From NCBI GenBank assembly GCA_018865545.1, contig GCA_018865545.1_3633.2: a DNA stretch of 54,480 bases, one strand, 5' to 3'. Each line of letters opens with the position of its first letter. Within the stretch, counting starts at the first letter, position 1. Source of the stretch: a phage. The notes under the pieces are model-generated. The model saw only the letters and a program-made list of their open reading frames with translations, was not told the DNA's origin and ran no database searches. The position numbers and the translations under genes are program-made. This document shows, piece after piece, positions 22,174 to 27,962 of this stretch.

Positions 22174-22671
22174 TTACTCACCTTTCAGCTTAAAACTTTT
22201 CAATGTTTTGATAAAGTTTTTCTCTGCTGGTGAGTAAGTGTGAACGAAACCTGTTTCTTCACAGGTGTAGGTATCATTAATCTCCATCGCATGTTGAGGC
22301 ATAAATGCACCTTCAGGAACAGGTTTATATTCTGGGTTGTAGATATATTCCGGTAACACAACAGCTACAGCAGTCAGTGCTCCATTCAGGGCTTCCCATT
22401 CTTCACGGAAAGCACCAACAGGGAGGTTTCCCACAGATTTAACCTGCGTAAGAAAATCTTGCAGGACGGATTGATAACCACCATTTAAAACAATAATGGT
22501 CTTATCTTTTTCTCTCCAGCATTTCAGCAAATAGTGCGCATCGAACTCTTCCGGTGTGTTTGCTGGGCGGTTATATGCCTCCATAAGTTCCACAATGGCA
22601 TGCGCTGATTGGATACCTGCATGGATACCGGAGATATATTGATTAACAATACAATACATTCTTGTTTTCAT
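22174..22671 (-). CDS. PTH2-like (peptidyl-tRNA hydrolase-like) protein, tentative
   Basis: GIQSAHA resembles the Q-x-S/A-H-A motif of PTH2 enzymes; weak. Confidence 0.35.
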   Translation of the reverse strand: MKTRMYCIVNQYISGIHAGIQSAHAIVELMEAYNRPANTPEEFDAHYLLKCWREKDKTIIVLNGGYQSVLQDFLTQVKSVGNLPVGAFREEWEALNGALTAVAVVLPEYIYNPEYKPVPEGAFMPQHAMEINDTYTCEETGFVHTYSPAEKNFIKTLKSFKLKGE

Positions 22672-22886
22672 TTTTGTTTTTTCCTCAGAATTATTCTATC
22701 TTCACTAAAAATTTCCTGTAACCCAGCAGCTATCAGTGCAAATATTGCTACCCACCATACAACTAACAGGAGTACCCCAACAAGCAAATCTCTACCTGTG
22801 ATCTGTTGCTCAATCCTGTAGGTAAAAATAAAGAAAGCTACGGATACTAAAGCACCAACAAAGAAGTAGATAAACACTTCAGTCAT
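22668..22886 (-). CDS. small membrane protein
   Basis: ORF track; two hydrophobic helices. Confidence 0.4.
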   Translation of the reverse strand: MTEVFIYFFVGALVSVAFFIFTYRIEQQITGRDLLVGVLLLVVWWVAIFALIAAGLQEIFSEDRIILRKKQK

Positions 22887-23214
22887 TATCTCTTTTCTCC
22901 AAATCCCGTTTCTCCAAGTATCCTTTTACCATAAGTGCTACAGCGTAAATTCCCACAAGACAAATACAAAATGTGAAAATAATAGGTAAAGTCATGACCG
23001 CAAACATCATAAACAGTGGTCCTACAACAGTAATGAATGCTGTTCCAAGCAACAACAAAAATACTACATATTTATCTGCCGTCTCATCCACCTTCTTAAG
23101 ATACACACCTAAACACACAGAAGACAACAGGAATGACAGAATGGACAGCAATAGATACCAATTATCAATAAAGATGATAATTGGACCAGCAACATTTTCT
23201 AGCCACCACATCAT
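22879..23214 (-). CDS. membrane protein
   Basis: ORF track; three hydrophobic segments. Confidence 0.45.
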   Translation of the reverse strand: MMWWLENVAGPIIIFIDNWYLLLSILSFLLSSVCLGVYLKKVDETADKYVVFLLLLGTAFITVVGPLFMMFAVMTLPIIFTFCICLVGIYAVALMVKGYLEKRDLEKRDND

Positions 23215-23228
23215 ATATACTTACCTCT

Positions 23229-24485
23229 TTAGAATAACATATCTCTGCTGATTGCTTTACGAATAGCATCAATACGGGCTACTCGCACAGCTTCACCAAT
23301 CTCTTTACCCTTCTTACCTTTTTCCAGAAGGGGTTTTGTTATAGCTTTAGAATCAACTTTTGTCATAGCATCGTAGGCTTCCAACAAAATATGACCCTGA
23401 GGATAAGGTTTATGTCTAAAATCACCACCTCTTCCTTTAGCATCACAATAACACGCATCTGCAAGTGTGTAAACCTTTATTTTCTGATCAGCTTGTCCAG
23501 CAGCTTCAAATATTTTCATGATGCTTTTTGGTTTCAAACCGTTGTTACCATCTCTGGGGGAGATGGCGTGCACTTTTGTGTGATTTTCCGCAACATATTT
23601 TGCCGTGTCACGATAGATATTATAAATCTTCAACCTTTCACACAAGGATTGGATAACATCTACACCAGCTTTCTCATGACCATGAAGATTACCATTGTCC
23701 TTGTAAGTTATAGCTTTGCCAAAATCATGGCACAGCACAGCAAACTTGGTCAGTGGATCAGCCCCTAATTCATCAGCAACCCGTAACGCTAGAATTGTAT
23801 GGGTGTAAGCATCCCCTTCTGGGTGATGTTCTTTAGGTTGTTGCACACGACGTAGGGCTTCCAGTTCAGGAAGTTCGCCAATACGTCCCATATTGACAGC
23901 AAAAGATCTGAAATAACCACTCTTTAAGGCTTTCAACATTTCCTTCCATTTACGCTCGGCGCTTATTTCTGCCAAAGAGTGTCGGTTGTCATAAGCCAGT
24001 TTAAAAGTTTCTGGATGGATATGCCACTCTTCCCCAAGCTGGGCTTTAAATCTAAACAGGCGTAGAATACGTAATGGATCTTCAATAAATGCCTGCGATG
24101 TATGACGTAATGTTTTAAGTCCTAAATCAACTTGACCACCAAAAGGATCAATAATCTCACCACTGTCAACATCCATCGCCATGGAGTTGATGGTTAGATC
24201 TCTACGTGCCAAATCCTCTTCCAGTGTTACATCTGGACTAAAGCATACCTCAAATCCTTTATGGCCTTCGCCTGTTTTTCTTTCTGTGCGTGCAAGAGCG
24301 TACTCTTCTCTTGTTTCTGGGTGAAGATAAACTGGAAAAGATGCGCCAACTTGTGTGAACCCTCTTTTCAACATCTCTTCATGCGTAGCGCCAACAACAA
24401 CATAATCACGGTCTGATAATTCACGACCCAGCAATTTATCTCTTACTGCACCGCCTACTAAGTATACCTTCATTTCTTCGCCCAC
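23229..24485 (-). CDS. cca: tRNA nucleotidyltransferase (CCA-adding enzyme) with HD domain
   Basis: N-terminus MKVYLVGGAVRDKLLGRELSDRDYVVVGAT..YALARTERK closely resembles bacterial Cca; HD-like region ALLHDIGK-type (LCHDFGK). Confidence 0.85.
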   Translation of the reverse strand: MGEEMKVYLVGGAVRDKLLGRELSDRDYVVVGATHEEMLKRGFTQVGASFPVYLHPETREEYALARTERKTGEGHKGFEVCFSPDVTLEEDLARRDLTINSMAMDVDSGEIIDPFGGQVDLGLKTLRHTSQAFIEDPLRILRLFRFKAQLGEEWHIHPETFKLAYDNRHSLAEISAERKWKEMLKALKSGYFRSFAVNMGRIGELPELEALRRVQQPKEHHPEGDAYTHTILALRVADELGADPLTKFAVLCHDFGKAITYKDNGNLHGHEKAGVDVIQSLCERLKIYNIYRDTAKYVAENHTKVHAISPRDGNNGLKPKSIMKIFEAAGQADQKIKVYTLADACYCDAKGRGGDFRHKPYPQGHILLEAYDAMTKVDSKAITKPLLEKGKKGKEIGEAVRVARIDAIRKAISRDMLF

Positions 24486-24796
24486 GTATTCATATAATTA
24501 ACAATATCTTTTACGGTTCTCTTTCCGTCCAGTGGATAAACCATGTCATCGCTCATCCCACCGTGTTTTAGCATTGCTACCAGTCTAGTATATACCTCTT
24601 TTGGTCTTTTGCAAGTTCTTTTCTTCCATTTATGACCGTCTGGGGAGTACTCCTTATCTTCAAGAGAGATATGAAGGATGTCCCCTATAAACTCTTTAGC
24701 CTGTGTGCTGTAAAGTGGACGGTGGAATATGTAGAATTTCATTGCTTGCTCCTTTGTTGTAATAACAATATCAGTGCAAGCCACCTGTGTCAACAC
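24470..24796 (-). CDS. hypothetical protein
   Basis: ORF track. Confidence 0.45.
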   Translation of the reverse strand: MLTQVACTDIVITTKEQAMKFYIFHRPLYSTQAKEFIGDILHISLEDKEYSPDGHKWKKRTCKRPKEVYTRLVAMLKHGGMSDDMVYPLDGKRTVKDIVNYMNTWAKK

Positions 24797-24831
24797 ATAA
24801 AGAAAAACCCGCTAAAAAGCGGGTTAATCTC

Positions 24832-25113
24832 TTACCATGTTACAAATATGTTTATAGATGTGCCTTGTTTTGTTGGTTGATAGCTAATAATATCTACCGT
24901 GAAGCCACCACCACGAAGATCGCCAACAATATGAGGCAGGTAATCACCCATTTCCTCCGGGAACTGTAGTGACATACCCATTCCAAATAGACCTTTCTTT
25001 GCACATTGGCTGATCCCGTTTACTATCTGATCGTATAGTTCCACCAGAGATTTTGGGGTGTCCTTTTTCGACTTGTTCGCTATCTCTCTCATTTTGCTGG
25101 CGACATTTGCCAT
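24832..25113 (-). CDS. hypothetical protein
   Basis: ORF track; strong TAAGAGGTAAAG RBS before ATG25113; overlaps the 3' tail of the methyltransferase ORF by 170 nt in another frame. Confidence 0.45.
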   Translation of the reverse strand: MANVASKMREIANKSKKDTPKSLVELYDQIVNGISQCAKKGLFGMGMSLQFPEEMGDYLPHIVGDLRGGGFTVDIISYQPTKQGTSINIFVTW

Positions 25114-25624
25114 CTTTACCTCTTAAAAAATAGAAAGGCTTCAAATTAAGGGTGTTCTTTTTGTCCCACACATACCATGCATACCCGCTTCCATCTGTCT
25201 TACCATCCTCTGTAAAAGATGGTCTTTGAGAAAGTACAAGCAGAGATGTTGGGGGATTATCTTGCCACCACTCCCACCTTTTCATACTTTCAAGAAAACC
25301 AAGACGTAGAAGCATGATAACGACATCAGCGTCACGTAGAGCTTTCTCAACAAATTCTTGAGCCAGTGAGTATGGAGGGTTAGAGATTATGATATCTGTG
25401 TGATTATACTCTGTTGCCAGATAATCAACACCTTGGCGTATTTCTCCCCAAGCACTTCCGATTGGTAGAAAATTATAAATCCTACCGGAAGCTCTGCACG
25501 GCTCCATATATTTCTTTTTCATATCTATGGGGATGACTTCCAACAGGGCTTCAACAGCCCATACTGGGGTTTCATACGTGTCGTATTCTCTCCGATCACC
25601 CTTCCTTTTCAGGGGTGCTACCAT
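24944..25624 (-). CDS. DNA methyltransferase-like protein (NPPY motif)
   Basis: DIIISNPPYS motif IV of amino-methyltransferases; C-terminal 60 aa low-complexity and overlapped by the next gene. Confidence 0.45.
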   Translation of the reverse strand: MVAPLKRKGDRREYDTYETPVWAVEALLEVIPIDMKKKYMEPCRASGRIYNFLPIGSAWGEIRQGVDYLATEYNHTDIIISNPPYSLAQEFVEKALRDADVVIMLLRLGFLESMKRWEWWQDNPPTSLLVLSQRPSFTEDGKTDGSGYAWYVWDKKNTLNLKPFYFLRGKDGKCRQQNERDSEQVEKGHPKISGGTIRSDSKRDQPMCKERSIWNGYVTTVPGGNG

Positions 25625-26571
25625 CAGTTACCAACCTTTTCGCTAGTTTCTTTCAGAATATCTTCGGAAACACTAAGAATTTGATTCAGTAGAATGTCTC
25701 TTTTGTGTGGTATTACTCTGGCTTCATTCTCACCATATTGCAGGTTGTTTAATTGTACAAGAATTTCTTTTAACTCGTCAACATTAAAACCATCAAAATC
25801 ACGTTCGTTCAAAGTTGACATATTGAAACTAAAATTCTCGCCACCAACCGCAATGTTCATAAACATTTCTTGTACCTCACCTTTAGGAACAGCATCTATG
25901 TTTTGGGGTGTGACATTCTTAACCACTGTTGTTTTTGTGGTTTTTGAGCCTGTTACATACTTCAGCCCTTGTTGCTCTCTTCGGATATTCTCTTTATCCA
26001 GTAAAGCGGCTTCTGTGCGTGCCAAAATATCTTCTTCTGTCAACCAAACTTCCCCACCACCTTTAATGGTTTCCATTTCTTCAGGTGTTAGCACATCTTT
26101 ATAGAAATAATCGAAGACACGATCAAAGTAGTCTTTTTGGAACACAGCTTGGCGGTAAATGTTGGATCCGTCTCCACCTATCCAACCCTGATAGTTATGG
26201 AACATAAAAATTGTCAATGGTGAAACAGTTCTACGCTCACATGCCAACCATAATACTGTTCCTGCTGAACACACTTGGCCTTCTGCATGAACAATAACCA
26301 TGGCCTGACTTTCTCGGATGGCGCTAACGTATGCCATAGCAATAGCAACATCTCCACCCAATGTATTTATAATAATGCGTACCGTATCCTCTGGATTGGC
26401 TGCACGAATTGTTTGTAACCGCTCTTGGTGATCTTCCAACCAATGCATCTCATTAACGTAAATGACATGATTATTAGCATGAGCACGATATGTAAAAACA
26501 TTAGCAGTCTCTACACGGTTAACGTTAAAATCATTACTCAGTTTTTGCATTACAACCTTCTCCGTTTTCAA
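25624..26571 (-). CDS. ClpP-like serine protease
   Basis: VIVHAEGQVCSAGTVLW (Ser in GxSxG-like context) and FMFHNYQGWIGG (His) resemble the ClpP catalytic motifs. Confidence 0.55.
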   Translation of the reverse strand: MKTEKVVMQKLSNDFNVNRVETANVFTYRAHANNHVIYVNEMHWLEDHQERLQTIRAANPEDTVRIIINTLGGDVAIAMAYVSAIRESQAMVIVHAEGQVCSAGTVLWLACERRTVSPLTIFMFHNYQGWIGGDGSNIYRQAVFQKDYFDRVFDYFYKDVLTPEEMETIKGGGEVWLTEEDILARTEAALLDKENIRREQQGLKYVTGSKTTKTTVVKNVTPQNIDAVPKGEVQEMFMNIAVGGENFSFNMSTLNERDFDGFNVDELKEILVQLNNLQYGENEARVIPHKRDILLNQILSVSEDILKETSEKVGN

Positions 26572-27031
26572 TGAGGATACCCATCAAAATATGGCTATTA
26601 CTCAAAAGCCAATCTATGTTTATGCCGCACTCCTCATCAACAATAACTTTGTCGCTATATCTGGAGCACCGGATAACTCTACGAGCATATTCAGCCGCTA
26701 TAGCTGCTTGGTGTATAATTGTAAACCTATCAAGTTCATCTTTAGTAAGATGAATGAACTTAGATTTACCATTCATACAGATGAGATGCTCCAGCAACTC
26801 AATTCTGTTAGAGAACATCAATTCGGCATCCTTCTTAGCAGCACTTTCAGAATAAAACATACTAGCTAAGAGGCTTTTATTAACAATTCTTAAAGAATTA
26901 GCCACCGTGGTCATATATCTGTTATAAAGCTCAGTAGCCATCTCTTCAAACACGTCAGGCTCTACAACACCACAATTCTGTAACTTTACCAAGGTATCGT
27001 TTGTTAAGACACTACAGACAGTATTTTTCAT
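26534..27031 (-). CDS. hypothetical protein
   Basis: ORF track. Confidence 0.45.
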   Translation of the reverse strand: MKNTVCSVLTNDTLVKLQNCGVVEPDVFEEMATELYNRYMTTVANSLRIVNKSLLASMFYSESAAKKDAELMFSNRIELLEHLICMNGKSKFIHLTKDELDRFTIIHQAAIAAEYARRVIRCSRYSDKVIVDEECGINIDWLLSNSHILMGILIENGEGCNAKTE

Positions 27032-27037
27032 TGTCCC

Positions 27038-27346
27038 CTACCTAGCAATTAGATATTGTATCTTTCCGTCATCTTCCTGATACCCAACATCTACAACATA
27101 GTATTCTCCAACATCAGGAATCAACAACTTATCCCCAACCTCGTACTCTTTTGGGGTATGGTATACCATTGATTCTGTAAAATATTTGTACTTATCCGTA
27201 TCGTTAATGTTGCATGAAATTTCCATTTCTCCGTTGTTGTTGGGTATGAGAATATCCTCACCATTCTTTTTCCCAACCACATAACCACCTACCAATGTTT
27301 TAACTAAGCACAGTGTTTTATTGAGTTTGTCTTGGAACTTTGGCAA
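27038..27346 (-). CDS. hypothetical protein
   Basis: ORF track. Confidence 0.45.
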   Translation of the reverse strand: MPKFQDKLNKTLCLVKTLVGGYVVGKKNGEDILIPNNNGEMEISCNINDTDKYKYFTESMVYHTPKEYEVGDKLLIPDVGEYYVVDVGYQEDDGKIQYLIAR

Positions 27347-27962
27347 AAGAATCCTCCATTTTGTCCAGGAATGTTTCCAGGATTTTTATTCTTTCTGGTG
27401 TGTTAAGATTAAGTGTTTTAATCCCTTTCATCTTAGCAAGATTGACAGCAGTAGCCGTGCCGCCTCTTGGATTACCATTCTTATCTTCTTTTGCGAAGTA
27501 GAGCACAAAGGAAGATGGCTTTGGGTTGTTAATATTCACTCCCAACACTTGATGCACATTCCTAGAATGTAACGCAAATGCTGCTCTGTTTCTCAACAAT
27601 GCTTGTGGGTTTGGATGCACCTTTTGCACCAACTCATCTCGGTATTCTATTTGATCGATATATAGATGGTTAATATATTGTAAGCCATAATCCCAGTTAT
27701 CGTACAAATCCACTTCTTTATCGCCAAAACCTTTCCATGGTATGTAAATTTCTGCGAGTCTGTTACCATACAATATTTTGGTTTTATCGTCAAGGCTATC
27801 GAAATATCGCTGCATCCCTCTCTGGAACGCCGCATCAGCCCCTTCTGCCTTACCGCTCCGCAATGTAAACCCTAACCCAGCCAGTCTAAAAGCAGCGTCT
27901 TCCATGACGCTGATAACTTCTGGGGGTGTTTCACGAGAACCTACCCCAGTATAATAACGCAT
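27318..27962 (-). CDS. DprA/Smf-like Rossmann-fold (SLOG) protein
   Basis: YTGVGSRETP...LRSGKAEGADAAFQRG resembles the DprA GSR...SG.A.G.D core. Confidence 0.45.
   Translation of the reverse strand: MRYYTGVGSRETPPEVISVMEDAAFRLAGLGFTLRSGKAEGADAAFQRGMQRYFDSLDDKTKILYGNRLAEIYIPWKGFGDKEVDLYDNWDYGLQYINHLYIDQIEYRDELVQKVHPNPQALLRNRAAFALHSRNVHQVLGVNINNPKPSSFVLYFAKEDKNGNPRGGTATAVNLAKMKGIKTLNLNTPERIKILETFLDKMEDSFAKVPRQTQ

Follow-up and report, generated by a model that had tools for sequence, protein, structure and literature searches.

The window analysed here is a stretch of 54,480 nucleotides (nt) of phage DNA, contig GCA_018865545.1_3633.2 of GenBank assembly GCA_018865545.1. Within it, on the minus strand, the 3' end of an open reading frame (ORF) resembling a DNA methyltransferase overlaps, in another frame, the first 56 codons of a downstream ORF for a protein of 93 amino acids (aa), which is a homologue of gp119 of phage rV5 (Table 1). 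The original prediction, made from the letters of the DNA, had drawn attention to this overlap of 170 nt and to a strong AAGAGGT ribosome-binding site ahead of the downstream gene, and both ORFs, their coordinates, and the Shine-Dalgarno element are indeed present at these positions. The ATG of the 93-aa gene starts on the second base of a methyltransferase codon; throughout the overlap, position 3 of the gp119-like codons is therefore position 1 of the methyltransferase codons. At its upstream end, the methyltransferase ATG shares 1 nt with the stop codon of a ClpP-like gene (TGATG). The ClpP-like, methyltransferase, and gp119-like genes form a tightly packed gene string, whose last two members overlap and which ends at a terminator-like hairpin. 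The region is 96% identical to that of Escherichia phages 18-1-2, 19-1-2, 24-2-1, and TH18 and 93% identical to that of Av-05. All of these belong to genus Avunavirus within the subfamily Vequintavirinae, and the window is likewise Avunavirus.

Table 1. Features of the methyltransferase/gp119-like locus, in positions of the window
Feature	Position	Strand	Description or basis
Methyltransferase-like ORF	25624..24944	minus	226 aa plus stop; NPPY and EPCRASG; phrog_799 match
Predicted catalytic core, residues 1-167	25124..25624	minus	AlphaFold2, Foldseek, homologue C-termini
Putative overprinted C-terminal tail, residues 168-226	24947..25123	minus	Model confidence, hydropathy, stop-free frame
Tail stop TGA	24946..24944	minus	
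Downstream 93-aa ORF	25113..24832	minus	Homologue of rV5 gp119; tblastn and phrog_12158
Dual-coding stretch, 170 nt	24944..25113	minus	Codons 1-56 of the 93-aa gene
Shine-Dalgarno AAGAGGT of the 93-aa gene	25124..25118	minus	4-nt spacer to ATG; within methyltransferase codons L167-R168-G169
Candidate -1 slippery heptamer T_TTT_TTA	25130..25124	minus	At the end of the methyltransferase core
Candidate prfB-like +1 site GGAGGA-AAT-GGG-TGA	24958..24944	minus	Shine-Dalgarno-like element, short spacer, slippery codon, UGA at the tail stop
Intrinsic-terminator-like hairpin and T run	24825..24806	minus	6 nt past the stop of the 93-aa gene; invariant in 18-1-2 and Av-05

The upstream product is predicted from its motifs, fold, and profile match to be a class I, S-adenosylmethionine (SAM)-dependent N6-adenine DNA methyltransferase. 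Motif IV, (D/N)PP(Y/F) in N6-adenine enzymes of this class, is present as NPPY at residues 82 to 85. N82, P83, and P84 are invariant across an alignment of 76 sequences, and Y85 is invariant in the eight phage sequences compared. A SAM-binding motif I (EPCRASG, residues 41 to 47) precedes it within what AlphaFold2 (AF2) models as a Rossmann-like methyltransferase fold. The predicted local distance difference test (pLDDT) score, averaged in blocks of 10 residues, is 88-98 for residues 21 to 170 and 70 for residues 11 to 20, and Foldseek relates the core to type I M subunits, PacII, CamA, and M.BseCI, with E values from 1.7e-5 (the best) to 1e-3. The sole strong profile match is phrog_799, 'DNA methyltransferase' (E 3.3e-80), and relatives are annotated as DNA N-6-adenine methyltransferase; in Pfam, the protein stays below the curated cut-offs (14.7 vs 28.1 for Dam; 15.3 vs 26.4 for EcoRI_methylase). 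The core, which ends ...KPFYFL about where rV5 gp118 and most homologues stop, spans 167 residues, with no obvious or recognisable target-recognition domain.

Sequence comparisons indicate that the 93-aa gene is real, that it is the older of the two reading frames, and that it evolves as an ordinary protein-coding gene. Its product, whose expected N-terminal peptides include SLVELYDQIVNGISQCAK, is found by tblastn at about full length in 190 phage records, with identity down to 41% in rV5-like phages (residues 7 to 93 against rV5 itself), and the 94-aa profile phrog_12158 matches residues 6 to 93 (E 7e-19). Both this full-length similarity and its position right after the methyltransferase place it in the family of rV5 gp119, a 94-aa protein encoded directly after the methyltransferase gp118. 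The N-terminal half that is overlapped in the window aligns to the N-terminal half of rV5 gp119, which has no overlap, and this half is also present without the overlap at two other loci, L030 and L032. The window, 18-1-2, and Av-05 differ by seven substitutions within the overlap, each of them at a third codon position of the 93-aa gene. In eleven divergent lineages, the overlap has a column entropy, counted in the gp119 frame, of 1.15 at position 3, 0.86 at position 1, and 0.64 at position 2, which is the normal coding signature for that frame; in the tail frame, it is the frame's own third position that varies least. AF2 predicts a compact alpha-alpha-beta-alpha-beta-beta protein (mean pLDDT 77.7), of which the helix at residues 21 to 40 and the strand at residues 45 to 52 are encoded within the overlap. 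This model is based on a shallow alignment, since a protein search with the 93-aa sequence returned just 8 clusters, probably because gene callers seldom call the full overlapped ORF. A fold search of the model against the PDB gave nothing significant (best E 0.037), a Pfam search with the protein gave no match, and a scan of IMG/VR with the gp119 alignment gave 11 loci only, almost all of them copies of known isolate genomes.

The genome annotations bear out this neglect of the gene. The Avunavirus records named above all annotate a methyltransferase gene of 681 nt and none has the full 93-aa ORF; in Av-05, just its last 39 codons are called. A second, 49-aa profile, phrog_15143, matches residues 45 to 93 only, so that PHROGs splits the 93-aa family into two groups. 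PVP-SE1 gp153 is annotated as exactly a 49-aa C-terminal fragment of a gp119-like protein, and the 49-aa group matches such shortened gene calls, by which annotators avoid the overlap. An obligate pairing of the methyltransferase with the 93-aa gene is unproven: Salmonella phage SSBI34 (L031) lacks the latter at that position and has an unrelated 112-aa gene in its place.

Past its core, the methyltransferase ORF of the window continues for about 59 residues, 78% of which are D, E, K, R, G, S, N, Q, P, or T, in agreement with the low-complexity tail of some 60 residues that had been described. An ORF of 681-684 nt with an overlap of 167-170 nt is found in six Avunavirus records; in the Seunavirus phages PVP-SE1, GAP31, and 4MG; in the Mydovirus phages Mydo and KB57; and in the Henunavirus Erwinia phage pEa_SNUABM_56. 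This same arrangement in four genera, and in metagenomic relatives, bears out the suggestion that the two genes genuinely overlap. In every genus, the Shine-Dalgarno element of gp119 falls inside methyltransferase codons; in the genera other than Avunavirus it is GGAGGG, encoded by L-E-G of the methyltransferase.

A search of a large protein collection for homologues of the methyltransferase gave 107 clusters, whose C-termini were compared. Most of these proteins, including members at 60-75% core identity, have 166-180 aa and end 15-20 residues past WDKKN (in …PFYW[VI]sp and then the stop). About 22 clusters have 219-227 aa with a tail like that of the window, and four others have 194-205 aa, consisting of the core and the first 27-38 tail residues, followed by a stop. 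The original prediction had proposed such a comparison of homologue lengths and had named, as a refutation, homologues that share the same long tail with conserved residues. That relatives share the long tail tells against its reading as a defect; the length and composition of the tail are conserved, its residues are not.

A comparison with rV5 (Vequintavirus) suggests how the tail arose. There, gp118 and gp119 represent the same two families in the same order, between a ClpP-like protease and a CCA-adding enzyme. Unlike the methyltransferase of the window, however, rV5 gp118 has 177 aa, its TGA lies within the ATGA at the start of gp119, so that 4 nt are shared, and there are 5 stops in the tail frame. 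Locus L030 has a TGATG junction of a short methyltransferase and a gp119-like gene, and in L032 the overlap with the gp119 homologue is only 22 nt and in the other frame; across the wider family, the overlap lengths are 4, 22, ~80-115, and 170 nt. The extended genomes retain the rV5-type ATGA/TGA where the small gene begins, now shifted by one base relative to the methyltransferase frame. Their tails end at a conserved TGA, which xxT-GAY creates across gp119 codons 56/57, with the stop at codon 56 in 15 of the 15 full-tail sequences analysed. The simplest history for this pattern is that, in the ancestor of Avuna-, Seuna-, Mydo-, and Henunavirus, the methyltransferase gene underwent a ±1 change close to its 3' end. 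The tail is a new, subclade-specific product of an old frame change, added to an ancestral-type enzyme that ends about 50 residues earlier. As is typical of an overprinted pair, both frames are open in several divergent genomes, and the older frame can be identified.

Selection on the tail frame was examined through its stop codons. Each tail codon is composed of position 3 of one gp119 codon and positions 1 and 2 of the next, and becomes a stop if a position-3 T precedes AA, AG, or GA. Codons starting with these dinucleotides are common in gp119, a protein rich in K, E, D, and N. When the 93-aa protein was synonymously re-encoded with the codon usage of the window and stops were counted over the first 56 codons, the mean was 5.4, and zero stops were obtained in 0.08% of cases (P ~8e-4 per sequence). 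The relatives with a short methyltransferase show comparable numbers in the tail frame: beside the 5 of rV5, there are 6 in the rV5-like contig L020, 7 in L030, and 3 in L032. By contrast, 15 of the 17 sequences of the extended clade are stop-free ahead of the conserved TGA. At sites where a T would create a stop, T is present in 3 of 198 cases in the overlap, all three being the truncating stops of two lineages (L022 and L023), compared with 26 of 78 in the remainder of the same gene and 5 of 10 in rV5. The 25 at-risk columns have seen at least 28 changes, 0 of them to T. Overall, T occupies position 3 in 10% of codons 2 to 55 and in 41% of codons 57 to 93, and codon by codon the T-rich run starts at the tail stop, codon 56. 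In some lineages the tail is cut, at gp119 codons 27 and 35 (in L022 at codon 27, by TAC to TAT), and L023 gained a second stop, at codon 49, after its truncation.

Shared ancestry was allowed for by a neutral simulation, in which position 3 of the overlap was evolved from an open ancestor along a neighbour-joining tree built from synonymous third positions of the methyltransferase core (star-like, with a total of 5.76 substitutions per site). Equilibrium T was set to 0.41, 0.30, or a purposely low 0.20, and open tips were counted in 3000 runs for each of nine settings. Between 0.6 and 4.6 of the 17 tips were expected to be open, as opposed to the 15 observed, and no run in any of the nine settings reached 15. 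We conclude that stops in the tail frame have been removed by selection, which implies that the tail is translated. Through this stop avoidance, the younger frame carries the signature of selection expected of an overprinted pair.

What is conserved in the tail is its openness, length, and composition, with the amino-acid sequence free to vary. Its grand average of hydropathy (GRAVY) is -1.43 in the window and -1.2 to -2.0 across lineages, in which 72-87% of the residues belong to the disorder-promoting set listed above, and the AF2 model of the tail has a pLDDT of 30-49. Such low confidence together with such hydrophilicity is consistent with disorder. Peptides expected from the tail of the window include DSEQVEK, ISGGTIR, and the C-terminal SIWNGYVTTVPGGNG. 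Tail codons that begin with T are depleted even where a stop is impossible (T 22.6% vs 49.7%). Since these codons encode F, L, S, Y, C, and W, mostly hydrophobic or aromatic residues, there may be selection against them as well, although this is less clear than the avoidance of stops; the depletion may alternatively stem from base composition in the 5' part of the gene. Within the first 20 tail residues of most lineages there is a cluster of basic residues (…RDRKQRRK…, …NRRKRTKK…; RxRRKRRK-like), and the net charge over this segment is +2 to +6 in 8 of the 10 lineages other than that of the window (-1 in L025). All four truncated forms retain the basic cluster and lose everything after it, and some short family members unrelated to these likewise end in a basic tail (for example P0038, P0042, P0044, and P0068).

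The explanation that we consider very probable is a genuine out-of-frame overlap of two real genes, in which the methyltransferase carries an overprinted C-terminal extension and both frames are translated. In the ancestor of the four genera, a one-base frame change at the 3' end of the methyltransferase gene would have caused the ancestral stop on the gp119 ATGA to be missed and about 57 extra codons to be read, up to the conserved TGA. Ribosomes translating the methyltransferase would now pass the gp119 Shine-Dalgarno element, its start, and its first 56 codons before release at that TGA, and gp119 would initiate independently from its own strong Shine-Dalgarno element rather than by termination-reinitiation coupling of the rV5 type. 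Infected cells would produce the tail as a flexible, hydrophilic appendage. The proximal basic patch of the tail probably lends the domain-poor enzyme some non-specific affinity, for DNA or a partner, in most lineages, and only weakly in that of the window.

Several observations weigh against this explanation. Literature searches gave nothing on this locus and no proteomic or ribosome-profiling data for either product. Divergence at position 3 synonymous in gp119 is 0.41 in the overlap and 0.33 outside it (0.47 and 0.43 at four-fold sites), so no extra constraint on the gp119-synonymous sites of the overlap was detected, and no selection on individual tail residues is claimed; pairwise identity is 33% in the tail frame and 45% in the gp119 frame. 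The tail therefore lacks the residue-level constraint that is usual for a specific binding function. The four clusters with shortened tails indicate that the distal half is dispensable in some lineages. In the lineage of the window, the basic cluster is weak (NERDSEQVEKGH, net +1 over residues 169 to 188), which speaks against the idea of DNA affinity for this phage in particular. Finally, the model behind the simulation is simple, with the gp119 protein held fixed and F81-like substitution, though the margin by which it failed to reproduce the data is large.

A more ambitious reading can be put forward only tentatively. The tail may represent a datable and naturally replicated birth of a disordered segment, held open over genus-level time by selection for openness and hydrophilicity alone, and the 167-residue enzyme, with no recognition domain of its own, may work with the tail and/or the co-transcribed 93-aa protein as its DNA-binding or specificity partner. 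If this were true, the long overlap would tie the coding sequences and the expression of both partners together.

The main rival accepts that the tail is translated and holds that selection guards the passage of ribosomes across codons 1 to 56 of gp119 (a passage that would, for example, set how often the gp119 Shine-Dalgarno element and start are free) and not the peptide; termination inside this stretch would be harmful. A tail whose sequence is unconstrained and whose openness is yet strongly kept is what this idea predicts. It also fits the translational coupling at the ancestral junctions (ATGA in rV5, TGATG in L030), which tied the expression of both genes together from the outset, and the location of the gp119 Shine-Dalgarno element within methyltransferase codons in every genus. 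It leaves unexplained, on the other hand, the roughly two-fold depletion of T at sites where no stop can form, which would suit an avoidance of hydrophobic residues, and it sits poorly with lineages whose tails end at gp119 codons 27 and 35. In addition, we know of no established mechanism that makes out-of-frame termination within a gene harmful. On balance, this rival appears unlikely.

Neutral read-through from an old frameshift, with a tail that is made but useless and is open through shared ancestry and chance, is strongly disfavoured and seems improbable. The absence of residue-level conservation, the natural truncated variants, and the range of overlap lengths in the wider family are all as it would have them. 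Against it stand the phylogeny-aware simulation, which never yielded 15 open tips of 17 even at an equilibrium T of 0.20, the complete lack of changes to T among those at the at-risk sites, the step in position-3 T on either side of the tail stop, and the behaviour of L023, in which a further stop appeared once the tail had been cut.

Recoding in the lineage of the window, either by a -1 slip at T_TTT_TTA or by a prfB-like +1 slip at the tail stop, has very little probability. Both motifs are invariant in 18-1-2 and Av-05, and the frames work out. In the -1 frame after the heptamer, a TAA follows after three codons, 2 nt before the ATG of the 93-aa gene, and would give a short enzyme of rV5 length. 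A +1 slip at GGG-TGA enters the gp119 frame exactly and would add the final 37 residues of gp119 to the methyltransferase. The heptamer is not kept elsewhere, however: the corresponding sequence is TAT TTC CTG in PVP-SE1, TAC TTC CTG in GAP31, TAT TTC TTG in 4MG, and TAT CAT TTG in the Erwinia phage, with a near-match, T TTT TTG, in Mydovirus. Nor is the +1 motif kept: before the tail stop, PVP-SE1, GAP31, and 4MG have a GAA or GAG codon, and Mydo/KB57 and the Erwinia phage have GCx or GGx (Ala/Gly). Compared with shuffled versions, the RNA that follows the heptamer shows no excess of structure (z -0.69), and the encoded amino acids account for both motifs (FYFL and PEEMGD), the +1 motif probably being a by-product of P-E-E-M-G-D. 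Programmed frameshifting as a conserved mechanism was rejected, as the exact motifs are confined to Avunavirus and no stimulatory structure is evident downstream.

The remaining idea, that the methyltransferase is frameshifted or truncated and its ORF made artificially long by a sequencing or assembly error or by decay of a pseudogene, drew on the resemblance of the tail to out-of-frame translation and on the 166-180 aa of most of the family, but has next to no probability, since an identical ORF structure and overlap in many independently sequenced genomes of four genera and in metagenomes excludes a sequencing frameshift in the window, and the tail frame is actively held open.

The surroundings of the locus offer some further observations. 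From rV5 to the metagenomic contig L030, for which one source names the methyltransferase as a Burkholderia pseudomallei hypothetical protein, the gene order is conserved: a DprA-like gene, two small ORFs, the ClpP-like protease, the minimal methyltransferase, the gp119-like gene, variable small genes (often GmrSD_N or HNH), and the CCA-adding tRNA nucleotidyltransferase (positions 22174-27962 of the window, minus strand; loci L003-L032). The ClpP-like ORF (25624-26571, minus strand), listed from a TTG, has 315 aa; relatives annotate 927 nt (308 aa). On the other side, right after the hairpin and before the next gene, lies a promoter-like TTGACA-17-TATTGT with an extended TG (24793..24765, minus strand). 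It is invariant in 18-1-2 and Av-05 as far as these are aligned, that is, up to the -35 hexamer, with the -10 sequence outside the alignment. The next gene (24796..24470, minus strand) matches phrog_7526 and gave no match in a Pfam search. HNH endonuclease genes are inserted around the junction in some relatives: in L021 (2006-2512), the insertion separates the short methyltransferase gene from the gp119-like gene, and in L029 (2180-2668), it directly follows the gp119-like gene; in phage KP12 (H38), an HNH annotation lies over the gp119 match. Eighteen records named 'Campylobacter phage' (A138, A142, A147, A112b, and others) have gp119 matches whose identity and score equal those of E. coli rV5-like phages (H85, H102, H103, H105). 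Of the four listed, three are 135-143 kb, and A138 is 35 kb. Their hosts may have been mislabelled, or the records may stem from contamination.

Short overlaps of 1-4 nt, such as ATGA or TGATG, serve translational coupling in phage and bacterial operons. Like these, the overlap described here joins same-strand neighbours of an operon, and the window has a TGATG of its own at the ClpP-like/methyltransferase junction. At 170 nt, however, the methyltransferase/gp119 overlap is of another length, and the start of gp119 lies so far upstream of the methyltransferase stop that coupling by termination and reinitiation is impossible here.

A closer parallel is viral overprinting, in which a new coding region arises in an alternative frame of an existing gene (PMC8227390; PMC3494269). 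As in that process, a widespread older frame (gp119) is paired with a younger one limited to a subclade, and the young product is hydrophilic, modelled as unstructured, and encoded in a frame that is less constrained than the old one. In contrast, the young frame here is a C-terminal extension of an upstream enzyme, without a start of its own; the host genome is that of a double-stranded DNA phage of ~120-145 kb, with weak pressure on genome size; and selection is detectable on openness and composition only. The E. coli pangenome provides a second parallel in its gene families remodelled out of frame (PMC8788219), where, as here, genes shifted in frame close to their 3' ends encode a replaced or lengthened C-terminus and have persisted as such. 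Unlike those families, the new frame in the phages covers a functional neighbouring gene, so that the same bases serve two proteins, and the state has lasted through genus-level divergence (gp119 at 45-80% identity), with natural controls alongside. The overlap is therefore of a known kind, a clean and statistically strong example of overprinting but not an unprecedented one, and does not constitute a new kind of biological system.

Long same-strand overlaps in phages and bacteria are usually taken for annotation errors, and annotators have in fact been misled here: in most records, the 93-aa gene is either absent or reduced to its last 39-49 codons. In genomes of Avuna-, Seuna-, Mydo-, and Henunavirus, the full 226-aa and 93-aa models are both warranted. 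The locus is also a natural experiment with built-in controls, namely relatives with overlaps of 4 nt or 22 nt, in which the alternative frame is unconstrained, and lineages in which the tail has been secondarily shortened. Comparisons among them show how an out-of-frame extension becomes fixed and is maintained, under a pattern of selection that keeps it open and hydrophilic and lets it vary otherwise, and make the case useful for studies of de novo sequence birth.

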